Source: an uncultured delta proteobacterium (lineage in GTDB: Bacteria > Desulfobacterota > Desulfobacteria > Desulfobacterales > JAHEIW01). Taken from it: a stretch of 64,000 nucleotides of DNA. The stretch is from assembly GCA_963706575.1 (NCBI GenBank), contig CAVPNL010000006.1, positions 192,001-256,000 on the forward strand. The letters are read 5' to 3'. Every line of letters begins with the position of its first letter. Positions within the stretch are counted from its first letter, which is position 1. Shown in pieces: positions 43,778-54,078 of the stretch. Position numbers and translations under genes: made by a program. The notes beneath the pieces are model-generated. The model saw only the letters and a list, made by a program, of their open reading frames with translations, was not told the DNA's origin and did no database searches.

Positions 43778-43834
43778 TTAAATTTGTTTAATACTTGCCG
43801 ATTCGCAAGAAATGGACTGCTGGTCAGCACTTTT

Positions 43835-44512
43835 TCACTGACCGGCAACCTCTTTTTGACAATGCTTGCAAATTTTAGCCCGCTTTTTGATAATCTCGGC
43901 ACAAAAGGGGCACTCCCGGGTAAAAAATTTTTTGTGAATCTTGCTTACGGCTTCATCGACCTTTTTTTGGAGAATCTGGTTGCCGAATGTTACGTTTCGG
44001 ATGGGCTCGATGGCTTCCAGCTCGCCGATATCCCCTATCATTTCAGCGGCTTTAGCCCTTACACGCACCGGCTCGGTTACATCGAGTAACATCTGCAGAA
44101 CCTGGGGGCCATCTTTGCTGACGTAGCAGTCTGCCAGAATTGAAAATCCTTTTTTAATTGCCTCTTTGAGGGCTTCCTCTTGGGCCAGCACCTGGTCATC
44201 GATGACCTGGCCCCGCCCCCCCATGGGGCTGAATACCGGTATTATTTCGAAAGTTTCCGTTCCCGGATAGTTCATGGACCGATAAGAGGCGGTCTGAGCA
44301 TAGTTTTCTTTCATGTTATCCCACCCCTGCTGGTAACAGGAACAATCGTCGTTAAAGCAGATGTACAAATAAGGGGTTCCCCATCCGAGGCCATCGCCAA
44401 CATTGACCGGAGGGACCTCCCATAAGTTCATTTCTTCACCGCAATGTGGGCAGCTGGGTTTTGGATGGGTAAGGATGCGTTCCAGCACCTGTTCTTTTGT
44501 TTCAAAGGTCAT
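43835..44512 (-). CDS. Zinc-ribbon/HEAT-repeat protein
   Basis: CPHCG, CFNDDC, C-terminal CPFCAE..AKICKHC. Confidence 0.8.
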   Translation of the reverse strand: MTFETKEQVLERILTHPKPSCPHCGEEMNLWEVPPVNVGDGLGWGTPYLYICFNDDCSCYQQGWDNMKENYAQTASYRSMNYPGTETFEIIPVFSPMGGRGQVIDDQVLAQEEALKEAIKKGFSILADCYVSKDGPQVLQMLLDVTEPVRVRAKAAEMIGDIGELEAIEPIRNVTFGNQILQKKVDEAVSKIHKKFFTRECPFCAEIIKKRAKICKHCQKEVAGQ

Positions 44513-49014: not shown

Positions 49015-49761
49015 TTATTTTCCAGCACGGATTAATACCCCTTCTGTAGCTGGTGAGCTGTTGAAACCCGTTTTTTTGACCAGTTCAGCATTCACAAAGC
49101 CGGCCCTTTGAAGCATTGCCAGGAAATCCTTTCCCGGTATAGCCCCGCCCTCTCATTGAGCCCAACTCTTAATTATTTTATCTTTTTCCTCGGGCAGCTC
49201 GCCAATGAGAATTTCGTCTGCCACCATCAGGCGGCCGCCGGGTTTTAAAACGCGGTAGATCTCACCAAAAGCCCTGGCTTTGTCGGGGACAAGGTTTAGG
49301 GCCCCATTTGATGTGACAACGTCAAAGTCTTCGTCTGCAAACGGCAAATTTTCAGCAGATCCTTCCTTAAAGACAACATTTTTTAAATCAGTCTTTGAAA
49401 GATTCTTTTTCGCCCGTTTAAGCATCGCCGGTGTTAAATCGACCCCTACCACTTTTCCCGTTGGCCCTGTCATCATCGCGGAAAAGAGCGTATCGACGCC
49501 GGCGCCACAGCCCACATCCAGTACCTCATCCCCTTTATCGACGGACCCCAATGTGAATGGATTGCCCACCCCGCAATATGAAGCGGCAACTTCCGCGGGT
49601 AACGCCTGCAGGAGTTCAGGATCATATTTTAGAGTTTTAAGTCCCTCATGGCCCGTGGGATAGCGAAACAGGCCATCCGGATTTTCAGCGGCCTTCGAAT
49701 ATGTTTTCCAAATCGTTTTTTGAATCCATTTTTTATCTTTAACCGTAAATTGAGTTTCCAT
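49015..49761 (-). CDS. ArsM-like SAM methyltransferase, probable selenoprotein (TGA 49153..49155)
   Basis: YCGVGNP, LDVGCGAGVD, EIYRVLKPGG. KSWAQ-[TGA]-EGGAIPG...AGF continues 45 codons to TAA, matching the ArsM WxxC..GA motif. Hairpin CCGGGAAA-GGA-TTTCCTGG 15 nt downstream. Confidence 0.88.
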
Positions 49762-49788: not shown

Positions 49789-50052
49789 TTACTGAAGGCC
49801 TGCCCGGATAGCCGCTTCCAGTTTTCTTTTGGAAATGTCCGTCCCTTCGACGACAATTTCATCCCCTACCATTATCGCAGGCGCAACCGGCAGATCAAGC
49901 TCGAAATATTCGTCGGTCATATATTCATCTTTTGGTTTTTCGATCGTTATCATCTCGATGTCGTATTTGGCACCCAGCCTGGGCATCATTTTTTTAAAGT
50001 GCTTTCAGGGCTTCCCATTGGGCAGGTTCATGAAAAATCTGACCTTCAACAT
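49789..50052 (-). CDS. Small thioredoxin-fold probable selenoprotein (NxPxGxxU; TGA 50005..50007)
   Basis: AAGGAGG RBS then MLKVRFFMNLPNGKP-[TGA]-KHFKKMMP..., in frame with ORF 49789..49989 (LPVAPAIMVGDE). Confidence 0.82.
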
Positions 50053-50088: not shown

Positions 50089-51828
50089 TTATTCAGTTTT
50101 CCTAATTTCTGCCATTCGCACTAGAAATTGATCGGCCGGCAAAAAATCAACCAGGCGCAGATCGCGTCGTTCCTTTCCCCAACTGTCCAAAAAGATAACC
50201 GTGGGGACACCTTTAACGTTAAATTGACGCAATAAATCTTCATAGACCGGATTGCCTTTTCGGGTGAGGTCAATCTTTATCATGCTAAAATCTGTTTTAG
50301 CCTGTTTGACGATTTCAGGATTATGAAAAGTGACTTCATCCAGTTCGCGACAGGGAGCACACCAGTCGGCATAAAAATCAAGGATCACCGGCTTTTTCAA
50401 TCTCTGGGCATCCACCAGTAACGGTTCCGAGTAGGGCTGCCAGGCGACACCGGGACCGTGCATCACCCATGAACCAATAAGGGCCGTGGCGATGATCAGT
50501 CCGGTTATGGCTGTACCGGTTCTAAGCCACTCGAATCCCCGAAACTCGGCCCGGCTCCGATCTATCCAGCCCAGGTGTAATGCTGCTGCCAAAGCCACGG
50601 CGGACAGTAAGAACACTTTTACGGTACCGGGTAATAACGGCTGAATAAAATAAGCGGCCATGCCCACCAGAATCCAGCCCAAAAGTTTTTTTACCCACAG
50701 CATCCACTCACCGGAGCGGGGAAGTTTGCGCAGCTGTCCTGAAAACAGGGCCAGGAAAAAAAGAGGCAGACCCAGACCGAGGCTCAATGTAAAGAAGATT
50801 AAAAATCCGATCCAGATGCTTCCGATAGTGGCGACCCAGGTCAGCAGACCCAGGATAAACGGGCCGATGCACGCGGAGGCCACCACGCCTAATGTCATTC
50901 CCATAAACAGGCTGCCAAAGTAGCCGGAATAGGATTTTGACGCGGCCTGTGACAAACTGTATGGGAGTCGCATTTCCCAGAGTCCAAAGAGACTGGTGGC
51001 AAAGAAAATGAGTACGGCGGCCACCAGGACGAGCACGACGGGGTGTTGCAGTAAACTTCCAAGCATCCCGCCGCTCAAGGCCGCAATCACCCCGAGCACC
51101 GAGTTGGTGATCGCGAGTCCTCCGATATAACAGGTCCCGTGGATCAACAATCTTCTCTGGTTTTGACCACTTCTACCGCCGAAATAGGAAACCGTAATCG
51201 GGATTAAAGGGTAAATACACGGTGTCAGGTTCAGGGCGATTCCGCCGGCAAAGATTCCCAGAAGTGTCCATATCATCGCCCAGCCCTCTAAGGGCCGTGA
51301 CTGCTGGGGCGCAAGCGATGTTTCAGAAAGCCCGGCCGGAGAGCTGACAACGGGCAAATTCTTTGCGTGCCACTGCGGATAGCCCATGGGATCGCGAAAG
51401 ATATTTTTATAACCCAGTGTTACGGCCACCCGGGCCGCCGAGTCACTGCGGACTCATGCCAGCCCCGCTCAGTAAAACACGATGAAACGATTTTTGTCCG
51501 GCCCCAGAAATTTCTCAAGGGCGCCTTTATTTCGCCAGCGCGACAACCAGGTCGGCTCCATGGGGAAATTAAGGGCGCCATTGATGTGCCCGGTGCGGTA
51601 TTCCCATTCCTGACGGGTGTCCACCAGGAGTACCGTTTCAGGGTCTTTTTGATAGCGGTCCCATAATGCATCGGTGTCAATAATCCGGTAGCCGCCCTGC
51701 TGGGCCTCGGCCAGCACATCGTTCCAGGTTGCCGCCTTGGGGGTGACCACCCGGTTGGTGTGCCAAAGGTAACCGGCAGTAATGGTTATGGCGACTAAAA
51801 CGAAAACAGTTTTTTTAATTGCACTCAT
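50089..51828 (-). CDS. Rhodanese-DsbD(beta-gamma) fusion with two probable Sec (TGA 51469..51471 and 51454..51456)
   Basis: Rhodanese (VDTRQEWEYRTGHINGA), then IVFY-[TGA]-AGLA-[TGA]-VRSDSAA...LGY...GYPQW, in frame with the DsbD ORF (LTPCIYP, SACIGP, DFYADWCAPC). Confidence 0.85.
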
Positions 51829-51919
51829 CTTGCCTATTGTCCGGTTGTCGATTCTGAAAAATAATTTATAATATTTTTTGGTAGTACTCCTGGCCAACCG
51901 CCATAAGGCGACATCGGAG

Positions 51920-52597
51920 CTATGCCTCTTTACCTACAGAAATTGGAAACCCCAGGGCTCGCAAGTCCTGGATTCCCTCTTCGAGCCGCACTGCCTGAAA
52001 ACCCCTTGAACGAAGCATCTCCACGGCCTGGATCGAAAGCACGCAGTATGGACCCCGGCAGTATGCCACGATTTCCTGATCGCGAGGCAAATCCAACAGG
52101 CGCAGTTGCAGCTCTTTAAGCGGGATGGAGATGGCCCCGGGGATGTGTCCGGCGTTGTATTCTTCCACCGGGCGGACATCCAGAACCGTGACTGCTCCTT
52201 TCCCAACCAGCTCCAGAAGCGATTTGCGATCAACCGGTTCCATACCCTCTCTTCCCTCCAGAAAGCGACGCTTGATTTGTTCCACCTCCGCCAGTCTGCT
52301 TTCGGCCAGAACCCGCATGGTGAGGAAAAACTCGCAGACCTTTTGATCGGCAAGACGGTAGTGAACAAATAGCCCCTCTTTTTCGGCCTCCACCAGGCGG
52401 GCTGTCCGCAGAACCTGCAGATGCTGGGAGGCATTTGCGACCGTCAAGCCGGATTCTTTGGCCAAAACCTCGACAGTTCGCGGGCCCTGGCACAGCAGAT
52501 CCAACAGCTCCAGTCGTTTCGGACTGGAAACCGCTTTTCCGATTCGTGCAAACTGCTCATAAATTGCATCTTTAAACACACGATTTGGATTTTTCAT
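51920..52597 (-). CDS. ArsR-family regulator fused to rhodanese
   Basis: ANASQHLQVL HTH plus DVRP.EEYNAGHIPGA, YCRGPYC. Confidence 0.93.
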   Translation of the reverse strand: MKNPNRVFKDAIYEQFARIGKAVSSPKRLELLDLLCQGPRTVEVLAKESGLTVANASQHLQVLRTARLVEAEKEGLFVHYRLADQKVCEFFLTMRVLAESRLAEVEQIKRRFLEGREGMEPVDRKSLLELVGKGAVTVLDVRPVEEYNAGHIPGAISIPLKELQLRLLDLPRDQEIVAYCRGPYCVLSIQAVEMLRSRGFQAVRLEEGIQDLRALGFPISVGKEA

Positions 52598-52660: not shown

Positions 52661-52780
52661 GAAAAAGGCGACTTAGGTTAAAAAATGTTGGGTCAAAGAC
52701 CTATCGGAAAGATTTCGACCCATAGAGGAAAATCGTGTAGGCGGAAAAGATCTTACCATCAAATGCAATTTATGGAGAAT

Positions 52781-53346
52781 TTAAAGGCTGGAATTCTGAT
52801 ACATTTTGAGGATTTCTACTTCGCGTGAAAGCCTTATCATGGTGTTCGAAAGTGCGTTAATCAGGCCGTCACCCGTACGAAAATGCTCCTTGTCAGCCCA
52901 GCTATCTTTTAATTGATGCATCCAGCTGTTGGGTGCAGGCGGTACCTTATTCCAGCCGGCATACGGAGCATAAAATAGATAAATATCCCAGGCAACGTGC
53001 CCGTCCCACCCAATACTCTTTGCGATCTCTTTTCCAACAATTTGATCTTGATCGTAAAAATGCCGGAATCTTTTATCACTTAAATACTTAACAGATGGAA
53101 GTGCGGCTTCTATAGAATCATTATCAAGTATTGGAATCCAAACAATTGAAGCAGCGATATCCGCATCCGGAAATTTTGTGATAATTGTCTCGTGTACCGC
53201 CCGGGCACCCTGGTCGCGTCACAATGGACAAGTCGGCGAGAGTAAGGCCAGAAATCGTATTTTCTCCTATTGTTATTAAATTGGTCTTTGAGCGGGTCTA
53301 AAAAGCTGTTCAGCGTTACTATATTGTTTGATTGGTTGATCTCCAT
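52781..53346 (-). CDS. Thioredoxin-fold CxxU probable selenoprotein (TGA 53219..53221; 1-nt frameshift near 53268)
   Basis: RFLALLSPTCPL-[TGA]-RDQGARAV...IVWIPIL...VAWDIYLFY...WMHQL, open for 145 codons after the TGA. Mostly missing from the ORF track. Confidence 0.8.
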
Positions 53347-53375
53347 TAAACTGGGTCCTTACTTTAAATCTTTTT

Positions 53376-53891
53376 TCAACGAATCATATTAAAAGAAATT
53401 TTACCATTCAGTTTATCCACCACCTGGCGGACGTCAGCCAAACATCACCTGCCTTTCGGATTCTTGTTGGCGCAATCGCAAGCACCGGCCTTCTTCTCTG
53501 CTGCGATTTTTTCAATGATCAACGATCGCCCATTTTTGATGAAATCCTGTTCGATATCATTTACGGTATATCCAAAACAGTAACATATTAGATCATCTAA
53601 CTTATAATCTAAATTCTCAGGAGGTTTATCGGAAATATCAGTCGAAGGTGTTTTGTCATTGGTTTTCAGATTCGCAACATACCCGACTTTAAGCAATGTT
53701 TGACAGATTTTCTCTACTGAAACTGTGGATTTGTCATACGATACGATAGCTTTTTTTTCCGGATAACTTGCAAAAGCCTTTTTAACTCCTGGCAGCTCTT
53801 CCAGAGCGCTTACCACTTTGGGCTCTCAGCCCATTCAGGTCATACCCTGTACCTCTAATTCAATCTCATGGGTTCCGTCTGTTGTCTTCAT
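53376..53891 (-). CDS. HMA domain plus Cys-rich (CopZ/BFD-like) domain protein with three probable Sec (TGA 53835, 53826, 53445)
   Basis: LEVQGMT-[TGA]-MG-[TGA]-EPKVVSALEELPGV matches GMTCxxC. ICYCF...CDCANKNPKGR-[TGA]-CLADV matches NPxGxCC. Confidence 0.88.
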
Positions 53892-54078
53892 ATTTGGTGC
53901 TCTCAAGGCTAATTATTTGGCTTTCAAGATTTATACAAAAAGGTTATAATCTACCGTTTAAAAGGTCAATTCCAAAACTTAATCGACTTCCTTATATCAA
54001 ATATCTGCCTTAATATGCTTGCCACCTTCTAAATCGTTATAGACCTGATATGATGGTCCGGCTTGCGCACTATTAGTA

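Follow-up and report, generated by a model that had tools for sequence, protein, structure and literature searches.

The available sections of a survey of prokaryotic selenoproteins (PMC13188914) distinguish 119 families and subfamilies, the vast majority containing one selenocysteine (Sec, U) and a small subset two or three; in the table parts covered, a fusion of ArsM with AhpD is the sole three-Sec family. Also listed there, as predicted selenoprotein families, are a UxxU metal-binding protein and form 1 of the CopZ family, with a GxUC motif. The gene described here joins these two in a single reading frame with three in-frame TGA codons. It lies on the minus strand of a 64,000-nucleotide (nt) stretch of DNA from an uncultured delta proteobacterium of the Desulfobacterales (assembly GCA_963706575.1, contig CAVPNL010000006.1, positions 192,001 to 256,000; this whole stretch is referred to below as the window). 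The gene almost certainly encodes a genuine three-Sec selenoprotein, and the make-up of the product is solid: an HMA(UxxU) domain followed by a BFD-like, CopZ-NT-type domain with a vicinal Sec-Cys pair.

The UxxU and GxUC motifs themselves are already known; what is new is their fusion and its context. The fusion appears to be undescribed: it was not found in the passages of PMC13188914 covered, an earlier description elsewhere being possible, and the BSepDB paper makes no mention of CopZ. The window protein would represent a second kind of three-Sec architecture, assembled from two metal-handling selenoprotein families.

A conserved frame with three in-frame TGA codons

The gene and its parts are as follows.

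53376..53891, minus strand: coding sequence of the three-Sec protein (translation; start Met shared with homologs; no hairpin past the terminal TGA)
53835..53837, minus strand: UGA codon 19 (Sec19), first position of GMT-U-xx-U; TGA in 47/47 complete copies
53826..53828, minus strand: UGA codon 22 (Sec22), second position of GMT-U-xx-U; TGA in 45/47 complete copies
53445..53447, minus strand: UGA codon 149 (Sec149), in NPKGR-U-C; TGA in 109/109 motif-bearing loci
53667..53873, minus strand: HMA domain, residues 7-75 (PF00403, E 8.4e-12; AlphaFold2 (AF2) predicted local distance difference test (pLDDT) 88-94; MerP 1OSD, template-modelling (TM) score 0.94)
53595..53666, minus strand: variable linker, residues 76-99, predicted to be disordered (pLDDT <50 for residues 79-93; low conservation)
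53385..53594, minus strand: BFD-like, CopZ-NT-type Cys-rich domain, residues 100-169 (CopZ_Nterm_CC 52.8 bits; 2HU9, E 7.6e-6; Bfd 4E6K, Z 5.7)

A preliminary description of this DNA, made from the sequence alone, had reported a 171-codon frame with TGA at codons 19, 22 and 149 and had given no strand. Translation confirms the frame and places it on the minus strand, at 53891..53379; the plus-strand reading of 53376..53891 is closed. Codon 172, at 53378..53376, is a TGA terminator, past which an A-rich stretch is followed by an in-frame TAA three codons on. With TGA written as U, 53891..53376 reads MKTTDGTHEIELEVQGMT-U-MG-U-EPKV ... ICYCF ... ACDC-ANKNPKGR-U-CLADVRQVVDKL ... MIR, and contains the motifs GMT-U-MG-U, ICYCF, ACDC and NPKGR-U-C. 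The start Met is that of the homologs, and no signal peptide is apparent, the first strand beginning at residue 7. Under translation table 11 the sole open reading frame (ORF) called is one of 123 amino acids (aa) between the second and third TGA; since gene callers reduce the gene to this fragment in most databases, it is systematically mis-annotated. Within 520 nt, three UGAs must be decoded as Sec and a fourth as stop.

The mis-annotation is visible among the 128 relatives found in protein databases, most of which, among the 120 listed, are fragments of 118-125 aa spanning exactly the stretch from the second to the third TGA. Full-length database homologs, evidently called with TGA as tryptophan, have W at all three positions (8/8). 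A DNA-level scan of species-representative genomes turned up 22 loci: four two-domain copies, all with the three TGAs, 17 stand-alone C-terminal domains, all with TGA at the UC site, and an unrelated HMA gene. A metagenome scan added 80 more loci. Among the two-domain DNA copies, that of the window included, 42 of 43 read TGA/TGA/TGA and one (L091) TGA/TGT/TGA; a further five comprise three with all three TGAs (L078, L108, L113), one UxxC form (L050) and one that ends at a contig edge (L115). The complete two-domain copies accordingly have three TGAs in 45 of 47 and Cys at position 22 in two (TGT in L091, a Cys codon in L050), these copies being partly non-independent, with 34 distinct protein sequences counted among the copies taken. 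At the UC position, TGA is present in every one of the 109 loci that carry the CxC..KNP motif. When 401 genomes of the same order were surveyed with read-through of TGA, full-length three-TGA matches turned up in four (G000, G085, G332, G278); among the matches listed, well over 100 were to the stand-alone C-terminal domain with one TGA.

Conservation of the TGAs is far beyond chance. Copies that have diverged to ~45-50% identity keep them together with the residues before, between and after them, and following Sec149 the residues C150, L151, D153, V154, V157 and V158 are invariant or nearly so. The preliminary description had allowed for the sequence after 53445 not being conserved, and for sense codons turning up in the reads. 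The first is contradicted by the retention of the residues just named, and the second did not occur: contigs from DNA runs (X1, X2) span all three TGAs with no alternative letter, and contigs from RNA libraries, from two runs of one study, cover UGA19 and UGA22 (X15) and UGA149 (X16), all unchanged. The read variants checked just past UGA149 (53439, 53442, 53457) are at third-codon positions.

The genome, 91.8% complete, encodes the decoding machinery: tRNA-Sec (RF01852, 75.2 bits), SelB (TIGR00475, 376.5), SelA (TIGR00474, 604.8) and SelD (TIGR00476, 380.3), all above cut-offs. TGA is an ordinary stop in this genome: of the 23 open frames in the window that have 300 codons or more, 7 end in it, as does the three-Sec gene itself. 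The SelD matches, at G000:C5:349796-350719 and G000:C3:438965-439886, carry an in-frame TGA, the C3 copy seeming to be split into two frames; SelD is itself probably a selenoprotein.

Bacterial selenocysteine insertion sequence (bSECIS) elements are modelled, in the available sections of PMC13188914, with a stem of 4-16 bp, a distance of 16-37 nt from UGA to loop and a minimum free energy of at most -7.5 kcal/mol. With these rules applied by hand, two hairpins fall within the limits.

53790..53815, minus strand: SECIS-like hairpin A, proposed for UGA19 and UGA22; GCUCU-GGA-AGAGC, -8.8 kcal/mol
53415..53432, minus strand: SECIS-like hairpin B, for UGA149; GUCCGCC-AGGU-GGUGGAU, -10.5 kcal/mol with the flanking pair

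Hairpin A has a GGA loop, a 5-bp upper stem (GCUCU/AGAGC) and a 5-bp lower stem with a 3-nt bulge. Its loop begins 32 nt past UGA19 and 23 nt past UGA22, so that one element is within range of both. Hairpin B has an AGGU loop on a 7-bp stem, the loop beginning 19 nt past UGA149. The 5-bp core of hairpin A, compared in 27 distinct sequences, is paired in 135/135 cells, and one pair switches among C-G (17), U-A (9) and U-G (1), a switch linked to a Glu/Gly change and offset by a synonymous change on the opposite arm. For hairpin B, 91.9% of cells pair in 85 distinct sequences, with double-sided changes in four of the seven pairs; the observed covariation score was reached by 0/500 shuffles, and slid controls pair at no more than 64.5%. 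Copies from Synergistaceae have a hairpin at the same place, of unrelated sequence. No hairpin was found past the terminal TGA (-2.9 kcal/mol, z +0.75). The preliminary description had pointed to GCTCT-GGA-AGAGC and TCCGCC-AGGT-GGTGGA as hairpins following the TGAs: both exist, fit the bSECIS model and covary. A further small hairpin, embedding UGA22 (columns 11-16 with 20-25; 82% of cells pair), was rejected as a SECIS element: one of its pairs is unpaired in 17/27, and it lies too near UGA19 for the model.

The two domains and their Cys-type relatives

Residues 7-75 match Pfam PF00403 with 45.7 bits against a cut-off of 24.8. The AF2 model of this part has the secondary structure E-H-E-E-H-E, and its best Foldseek match is MerP (1OSD), with a root-mean-square deviation (rmsd) of 0.8 Å. 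Sec19 and Sec22 align onto the CxxC of ATP7B and CopA domains; homologs with UxxC (L091, L050) and with CxxC (P0256, GMTCTGC) at the same loop agree with the earlier proposal that the first two TGAs replace both Cys of a GMTCxxC loop. The best NCBIfam match is NF041115, UxxU_metal_bind (residues 7-77 against model positions 3-73 of 74): the window protein works like this family and is not a member of it by the curated cut-off.

An alignment of 82 sequences shows C103, C105, C138, C140, U149 and C150 of the C-terminal domain to be invariant, in the pattern C103-x-C105 ... C138-D-C140 ... NPxGx-U149-C150. A single-sequence phmmer search of the PDB returned HMA domains only, with spurious beta-2-microglobulin matches for the C-terminal part; since it missed the relatives of this domain, a profile was needed to reach the CopZ-NT structure of A. 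fulgidus, 2HU9. The profile finds it at E 7.6e-6, over just 2HU9 residues 73-122, with CYC on Cys75/Cys77, C140 on Cys109, and U149-C150 on Cys118-Cys119 of NPSGRCC. The third TGA had been described as replacing the first Cys of a CC pair; this alignment, and NPxGxCC forms in seven homologs, bear that out. Bfd is found weakly (E 0.23), the Cys of its CxC and CxxC motifs aligning with C103, C105, C138 and C140. We take these four Bfd residues to be its cluster ligands; because they align with those four Cys, a Sec-ligated cluster is not required.

The likeness to the Fe-S/Zn domain of CopZ that had been proposed for this region stands in part: the BFD-like [2Fe-2S] half of CopZ-NT is there, and the Zn-ribbon half is not, the CPxC...C..C pattern being absent from the 24-residue linker. 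The NF047645 (CopZ_Nterm_CC) match covers positions 83-137 of 138, and that of NF045877 (CopZ_Nterm_CU, Csac_0668 family 2Fe-2S (seleno)protein) positions 99-158 of 161. Foldseek with the whole model returned HMA structures only. A model of the C-terminal domain alone has a pLDDT of 86.8, and the wide VIA-align search with it put Bfd first (4E6K, Z 5.7, rmsd 2.0 Å, 53/57 residues; a second Bfd row at Z 5.1), the next unrelated row having Z 4.6. The fold matches of this model look modest and consistent with one another.

An exhaustive HMMER search gave 5239 matches at E <= 0.001, dominated by multi-HMA proteins; a Cys counterpart was found among the aligned homologs for each of the three Sec positions, which the preliminary description had suggested looking for. 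The NPxGxCC forms are of three kinds: P0197, in which the domain stands alone as a Cys protein of 69 aa (NPSGHCCLG); a group of membrane proteins, 337-500 aa long (P0142, P0152, P0161, P0195, P0198), with a Zn-ribbon, CYCF...NPxGxCCLG, a MerT-like CC transmembrane segment and GMTCEGC HMA domains; and P0256, which has the domain order of the window protein, HMA(GMTCTGC) and then ...CYCF...NPSGKCCLG. Two small stand-alone homologs, P0162 (KGKRCL) and P0262 (KRRRCI), have Arg at the position of Sec149, which would fit a single substitution turning TGA into CGA or AGA.

The same order abounds in stand-alone copies of the C-terminal domain, 60-85 aa long and with TGA. Other arrangements were also seen. 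One locus (L055, G147:C47) is split: an HMA gene of the Cys type (GMTCSLC; hydrophobic N-terminus; TAA stop) is followed directly by a stand-alone ...KGRUC gene. In L057 (G321:C606) an HMA remnant, EIELEIQGMT, is joined to the C-terminal domain, and in L051 (G300:C25) the HMA N-terminus is degraded.

Gene neighbourhood and a candidate partner

On the minus strand, the 5' side of the three-Sec gene holds, in order, genes for a MarR-type regulator, WrbA, pirin, a membrane-anchored rhodanese and a MauE/DoxX membrane protein. The 3' side continues with the following genes, and the cluster of the three-Sec gene contains eight Sec codons in ~4.9 kb.

52781..53346, minus strand: partner gene, ~175 aa, LLSPT-C-P-L-U; Sec TGA at 53219-53221; adjacent in 17/46 loci
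51920..52597, minus strand: ArsR/SmtB-type helix-turn-helix (HTH) plus rhodanese protein, TsoR-like (NF033788 72 against 55 bits; TsoR NF045707 47.8 against 115; Pfam HTH_5 and Rhodanese)
50089..51897, minus strand: TsoB, rhodanese/DsbD fusion-like selenoprotein with two TGAs, FY-U-AGLA-U-VRS (NF045694, 1007 against 805 bits)
49795..50049, minus strand: TsoC selenoprotein with one TGA (NF045708, 135.8 against 45 bits; at G000:C6:241795-242049)
49015..49761, minus strand: ArsM-like S-adenosylmethionine (SAM) methyltransferase with one Sec, Q-U-EGG (UxxG) (NF041537 380 and NF008823 206.6 bits, both below cut-offs)

The Tso proteins, and several double selenoproteins, were reportedly defined by Haft and Tolstoy in mSystems in 2025. 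TsoB and TsoC are above their cut-offs, within 4 kb downstream of the three-Sec gene and on the same strand. No TsoA turned up in the genome (91.8% complete), a negative that says little, as the same search matched in no control genome. Of the ArsM/AhpD and ArsM/DUF2284 fusion models, the ArsM-like protein, which ends with the methyltransferase domain, matches just positions 1-248; PMC13188914, in the part available, gives UxxG as the motif of a Sec arsenite methyltransferase.

The most faithful neighbour is the partner gene, which adjoins the two-domain gene in 17 of 46 loci, many loci being too short to tell (copies are found, for example, at L027:3516-4043 and L085:3011-3550). Its second redox position is TGA in 13/13 intact copies, and UPGU occurs in 3/13; distant homologs are Cys forms (CTEC, CKEC). 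The protein has no Pfam or NCBIfam match at E <= 1, and its 141 database relatives are all unnamed or hypothetical and lack a Pfam domain. The partner represents a candidate selenoprotein family for which no model exists. In the window its frame is broken by 1 nt near 53267-53275, between ...DQFNNN and EKIRFLALLSPTCPLU, where homologs are continuous; the break may have arisen in assembly or be a genuine frameshift, and the run contigs have no depth below about 53366.

Only the two closest relatives also have TsoB and the ArsR-rhodanese gene nearby. ArsM-type methyltransferases are near the three-Sec gene in L026, L107, L109 and L111, as well as in the window. Among 51 neighbouring ORFs of 15 loci there was no P-type ATPase or MerA-type protein. 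Farther off in the window, the ORF 43778..44512 (minus strand) has zinc-ribbon motifs and a C-terminus weakly resembling DUF2284; close to its end is an in-frame TGA (...EVAGQ-U-KSADQQ...), which may be a stop or a Sec codon.

Elsewhere in the genome, ~700 kb away, a Cys-type CopZ lies beside a P1B-ATPase in three frame pieces (G000:C6:961232-964932), and a second P1B-ATPase is at G000:C15:212618-214876. Because HgcA is present above its cut-off (G000:C24:15398-16375, 447.8 against 275 bits), the organism is likely a mercury methylator.

Proposed function, alternatives and known systems

The best overall explanation, and one that we hold to be reasonably probable as a full functional reading, is that the gene supplies a cytoplasmic two-domain carrier of a thiophilic metal or metalloid. 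The ribosome would read the three in-frame UGAs as Sec, hairpin A serving UGA19 and UGA22 and hairpin B serving UGA149, and the final UGA, with no hairpin, would terminate. The bis-selenolate HMA loop would capture the metal(loid) very tightly, Hg(II)- or As(III)-type ions being the likelier ligands and Cu(I) coming after them. The second domain would most likely hold a [2Fe-2S] cluster on C103, C105, C138 and C140, with the Sec149-Cys150 pair adjoining it, and this module may provide electrons, a second hand-over site, or both; this would allow reduction or onward transfer of the ion and keep the selenols in reduced form. Recycling of oxidised Se-Se or Se-S bonds probably falls to the CxxU/UxxU thioredoxin-like partner. 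The signals for Sec decoding, the identities of the domains, their conservation and the gene context are what the data show; which metal is bound, whether an Fe-S cluster is present and what the partner does are the parts of this proposal that we infer. The preliminary interpretation is supported on each point that could be checked.

In this genome the pair stands first in a cluster under ArsR regulation that also encodes TsoB, TsoC and a Sec ArsM-like methyltransferase, a position that suggests detoxification or methylation of a metal(loid). Chemistry of the Hg/As type is favoured over housekeeping copper export by the ArsR-type regulator, the ArsM-like and Tso neighbours, the MerT-like Cys fusions and the separate CopZ and CopA; since the genome has its own Cys-type CopZ together with P1B-ATPases, the three-Sec protein is not expected to be the housekeeping copper chaperone. 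A functional link between the two domains is also indicated by the split form in L055 and by the Cys homologs in which the Cys-rich domain is joined to MerT-like segments and HMA.

A more specific proposal, which is tentative and more doubtful than not when all its parts are taken jointly, is that the three-Sec protein and its CxxU/UxxU partner form an undescribed selenolate “catch-and-release” pair: the bis-selenolate HMA domain might trap Hg(II), methyl-Hg precursors or As(III); a [2Fe-2S]/Sec-Cys unit, recharged by the partner, might drive release to a Sec ArsM-type methyltransferase or to Tso; the partner might be a new selenoprotein family; and a single SECIS might decode two UGAs 9 nt apart.

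Several observations weigh against the carrier reading or against elements of it. The case rests on sequence and models, with Se incorporation, metal binding and the Fe-S cluster all predicted, and the RNA-library contigs show neither transcription level nor strand, so that transcription is not proven. Single-sequence folding of the hairpins is not significant (z -1.72, with 11/200 shuffles as good, and z -1.23, with 23/200). In hairpin A there is a single covarying pair, whose nine U-A cases may trace to one ancestral change, and the lower stem is unconserved, pairs 34-52 and 35-51 being mostly unpaired; pairing percentages are inflated in both hairpins because they sit in conserved coding sequence. 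Rfam has no match on 52700-54000, giving at E <= 10 just chance-level hits to gut-2 and a picornavirus internal ribosome entry site. Curated cut-offs are missed by NF041115 (62 against 95 bits), NF047645 CopZ_Nterm_CC (52.8 against 100) and NF045877 (22.7 against 190). For the C-terminal domain, Pfam Fer2_BFD (PF04324) scores 18.8 bits against a gathering score of 26 (E 0.0021), the Z of 5.7 from VIA-align is below that tool's own caution level of 8, and Foldseek gives no match at E <= 0.001, its top rows being 2HU9 and Bfd at E 0.5-2, with Bfd at 1.6-2.0. The identity of the metal is not fixed by the sequence: the HMA loop belongs to the Cu/Hg type, and the NCBIfam MerTP, CopZ and MerP scores are similar. 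Beyond close relatives the context is mixed, TsoB being adjacent in 2/46 loci and an ArsM-type gene in 4/46, with many of the loci short.

The main rival is that the protein is a copper chaperone and Cu(II) reductase like A. fulgidus CopZ, with selenolates for thiolates, delivering Cu(I) to a CopA-type P1B-ATPase. Both domain types of A. fulgidus CopZ are present and NPxGxCC aligns, the HMA part scores 46-50 bits with CopZ-type NCBIfam models, and P1B-ATPases are encoded in the genome; yet the domain order is reversed and the Zn-ribbon half missing, a Cys-type CopZ already stands beside a P1B-ATPase ~700 kb off, and the neighbours of the three-Sec gene are an ArsR-type regulator, rhodaneses, TsoB/TsoC and ArsM-like methyltransferases, with no P-type ATPase among the 51 ORFs surveyed. 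Cu(II), moreover, should be scarce in sulfidic sediments. Together these make a copper chaperone of this kind improbable. Next comes a redox relay that binds no metal, in which the UxxU and UC pairs would cycle between selenol and diselenide or selenenylsulfide, shuttling electrons or sulfur/selenium species among the CxxU partner, the rhodaneses and the DsbD-like TsoB. Thiol-redox and sulfur-transfer proteins do dominate the neighbourhood (two rhodaneses, MauE/DoxX, the rhodanese-DsbD-thioredoxin protein TsoB, and the CxxU/UxxU thioredoxin-like partner), and the available part of a review text assigns a presumed redox role to most prokaryotic selenoproteins. Against this, all solved relatives found that share the HMA fold and a GMTCxxC-type loop have a metal site there, MerT-like and HMA modules occur fused to Cys-type versions of the C-terminal domain, and the regulators are of the ArsR/SmtB metalloregulator type, so that a relay of this kind is unlikely as well.

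Two further alternatives deny that the frame is a three-Sec protein at all. It could be a decaying pseudogene, or only the 123-aa ORF could be made, with UGA as stop: that fragment is what gene callers report in most databases, the single-sequence hairpin z-scores are weak, and the partner gene is frame-broken in this assembly. Such a fragment would, however, lack both functional motifs, and the TGAs and surrounding residues are conserved down to ~45-50% identity, with Cys/Sec pairs at all sites, covarying hairpins and complete Sec machinery; this explanation is very improbable. Reading of TGA as a standard amino acid, Trp or Gly, with no Sec, has in its favour that some public gene calls translate the three TGAs as W, but TGA ends 7/23 long frames and the gene itself, homologs align Cys rather than Trp or Gly with the TGAs, and tRNA-Sec, SelA, SelB and SelD are present: it is scarcely credible.

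The host lineage, Desulfobacterales with HgcA in the genome, matters for the cycling of mercury and arsenic in sediments. If the protein is indeed a Sec-based metal(loid) carrier, it could, given its ArsM-like and Tso neighbours, be relevant to methylation chemistry in the environment. The gene also offers a compact natural system for a basic question: how can one bacterial SECIS serve two UGAs 9 nt apart? Others follow from the protein. How does a bis-selenolate HMA site compare with a bis-thiolate one in affinity, redox potential and release? Is a vicinal Sec-Cys pair beside a [2Fe-2S] cluster a ligand or a hand-over site?

Among known systems, MerP, NmerA and bacterial CopZ (1OSD, 1AFI, 2KT2, 1CPZ) share a near-identical HMA fold and a GMTCxxC-type loop with the window protein; they have Cys where it has Sec, and it differs by its extra domain and the lack of a signal peptide, MerP being periplasmic. 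A. fulgidus CopZ has both an Fe-S Cys-rich domain and an HMA domain, its NPSGRCC aligning with NPKGR-U-C; it is an archaeal protein with a C-terminal HMA domain and a Zn-ribbon, whereas the window protein is bacterial and HMA-first, has no Zn-ribbon, and has an additional Cys (C138) and Sec at three ligand positions. Bfd (4E6K, 6E6Q) is the best structural match to the C-terminal model; its sequence similarity is weak, and it lacks the NPxGxUC extension and long C-terminal helix of the window protein. The MerT/CopZ fusion-like selenoprotein NF045683 and the Cys-type MerT-like proteins also combine an NPxGxCC-type Cys-rich domain with HMA, the MerT-like ones as membrane proteins of 337-500 aa; the window protein, by contrast, is soluble, has Sec at three sites and scores 24 bits against the NF045683 cut-off of 375. 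Further likenesses are to the two selenoprotein families with which this text began. In NF041115, as here, both loop Cys of an HMA fold are replaced by Sec, in a stand-alone protein of ~74 aa to which the window protein adds a second Sec-containing domain; with CopZ-family form 1 it has in common the GxUC motif and the pattern CxC...CxC...NPxGxUC, in a domain that is here fused behind HMA(UxxU).

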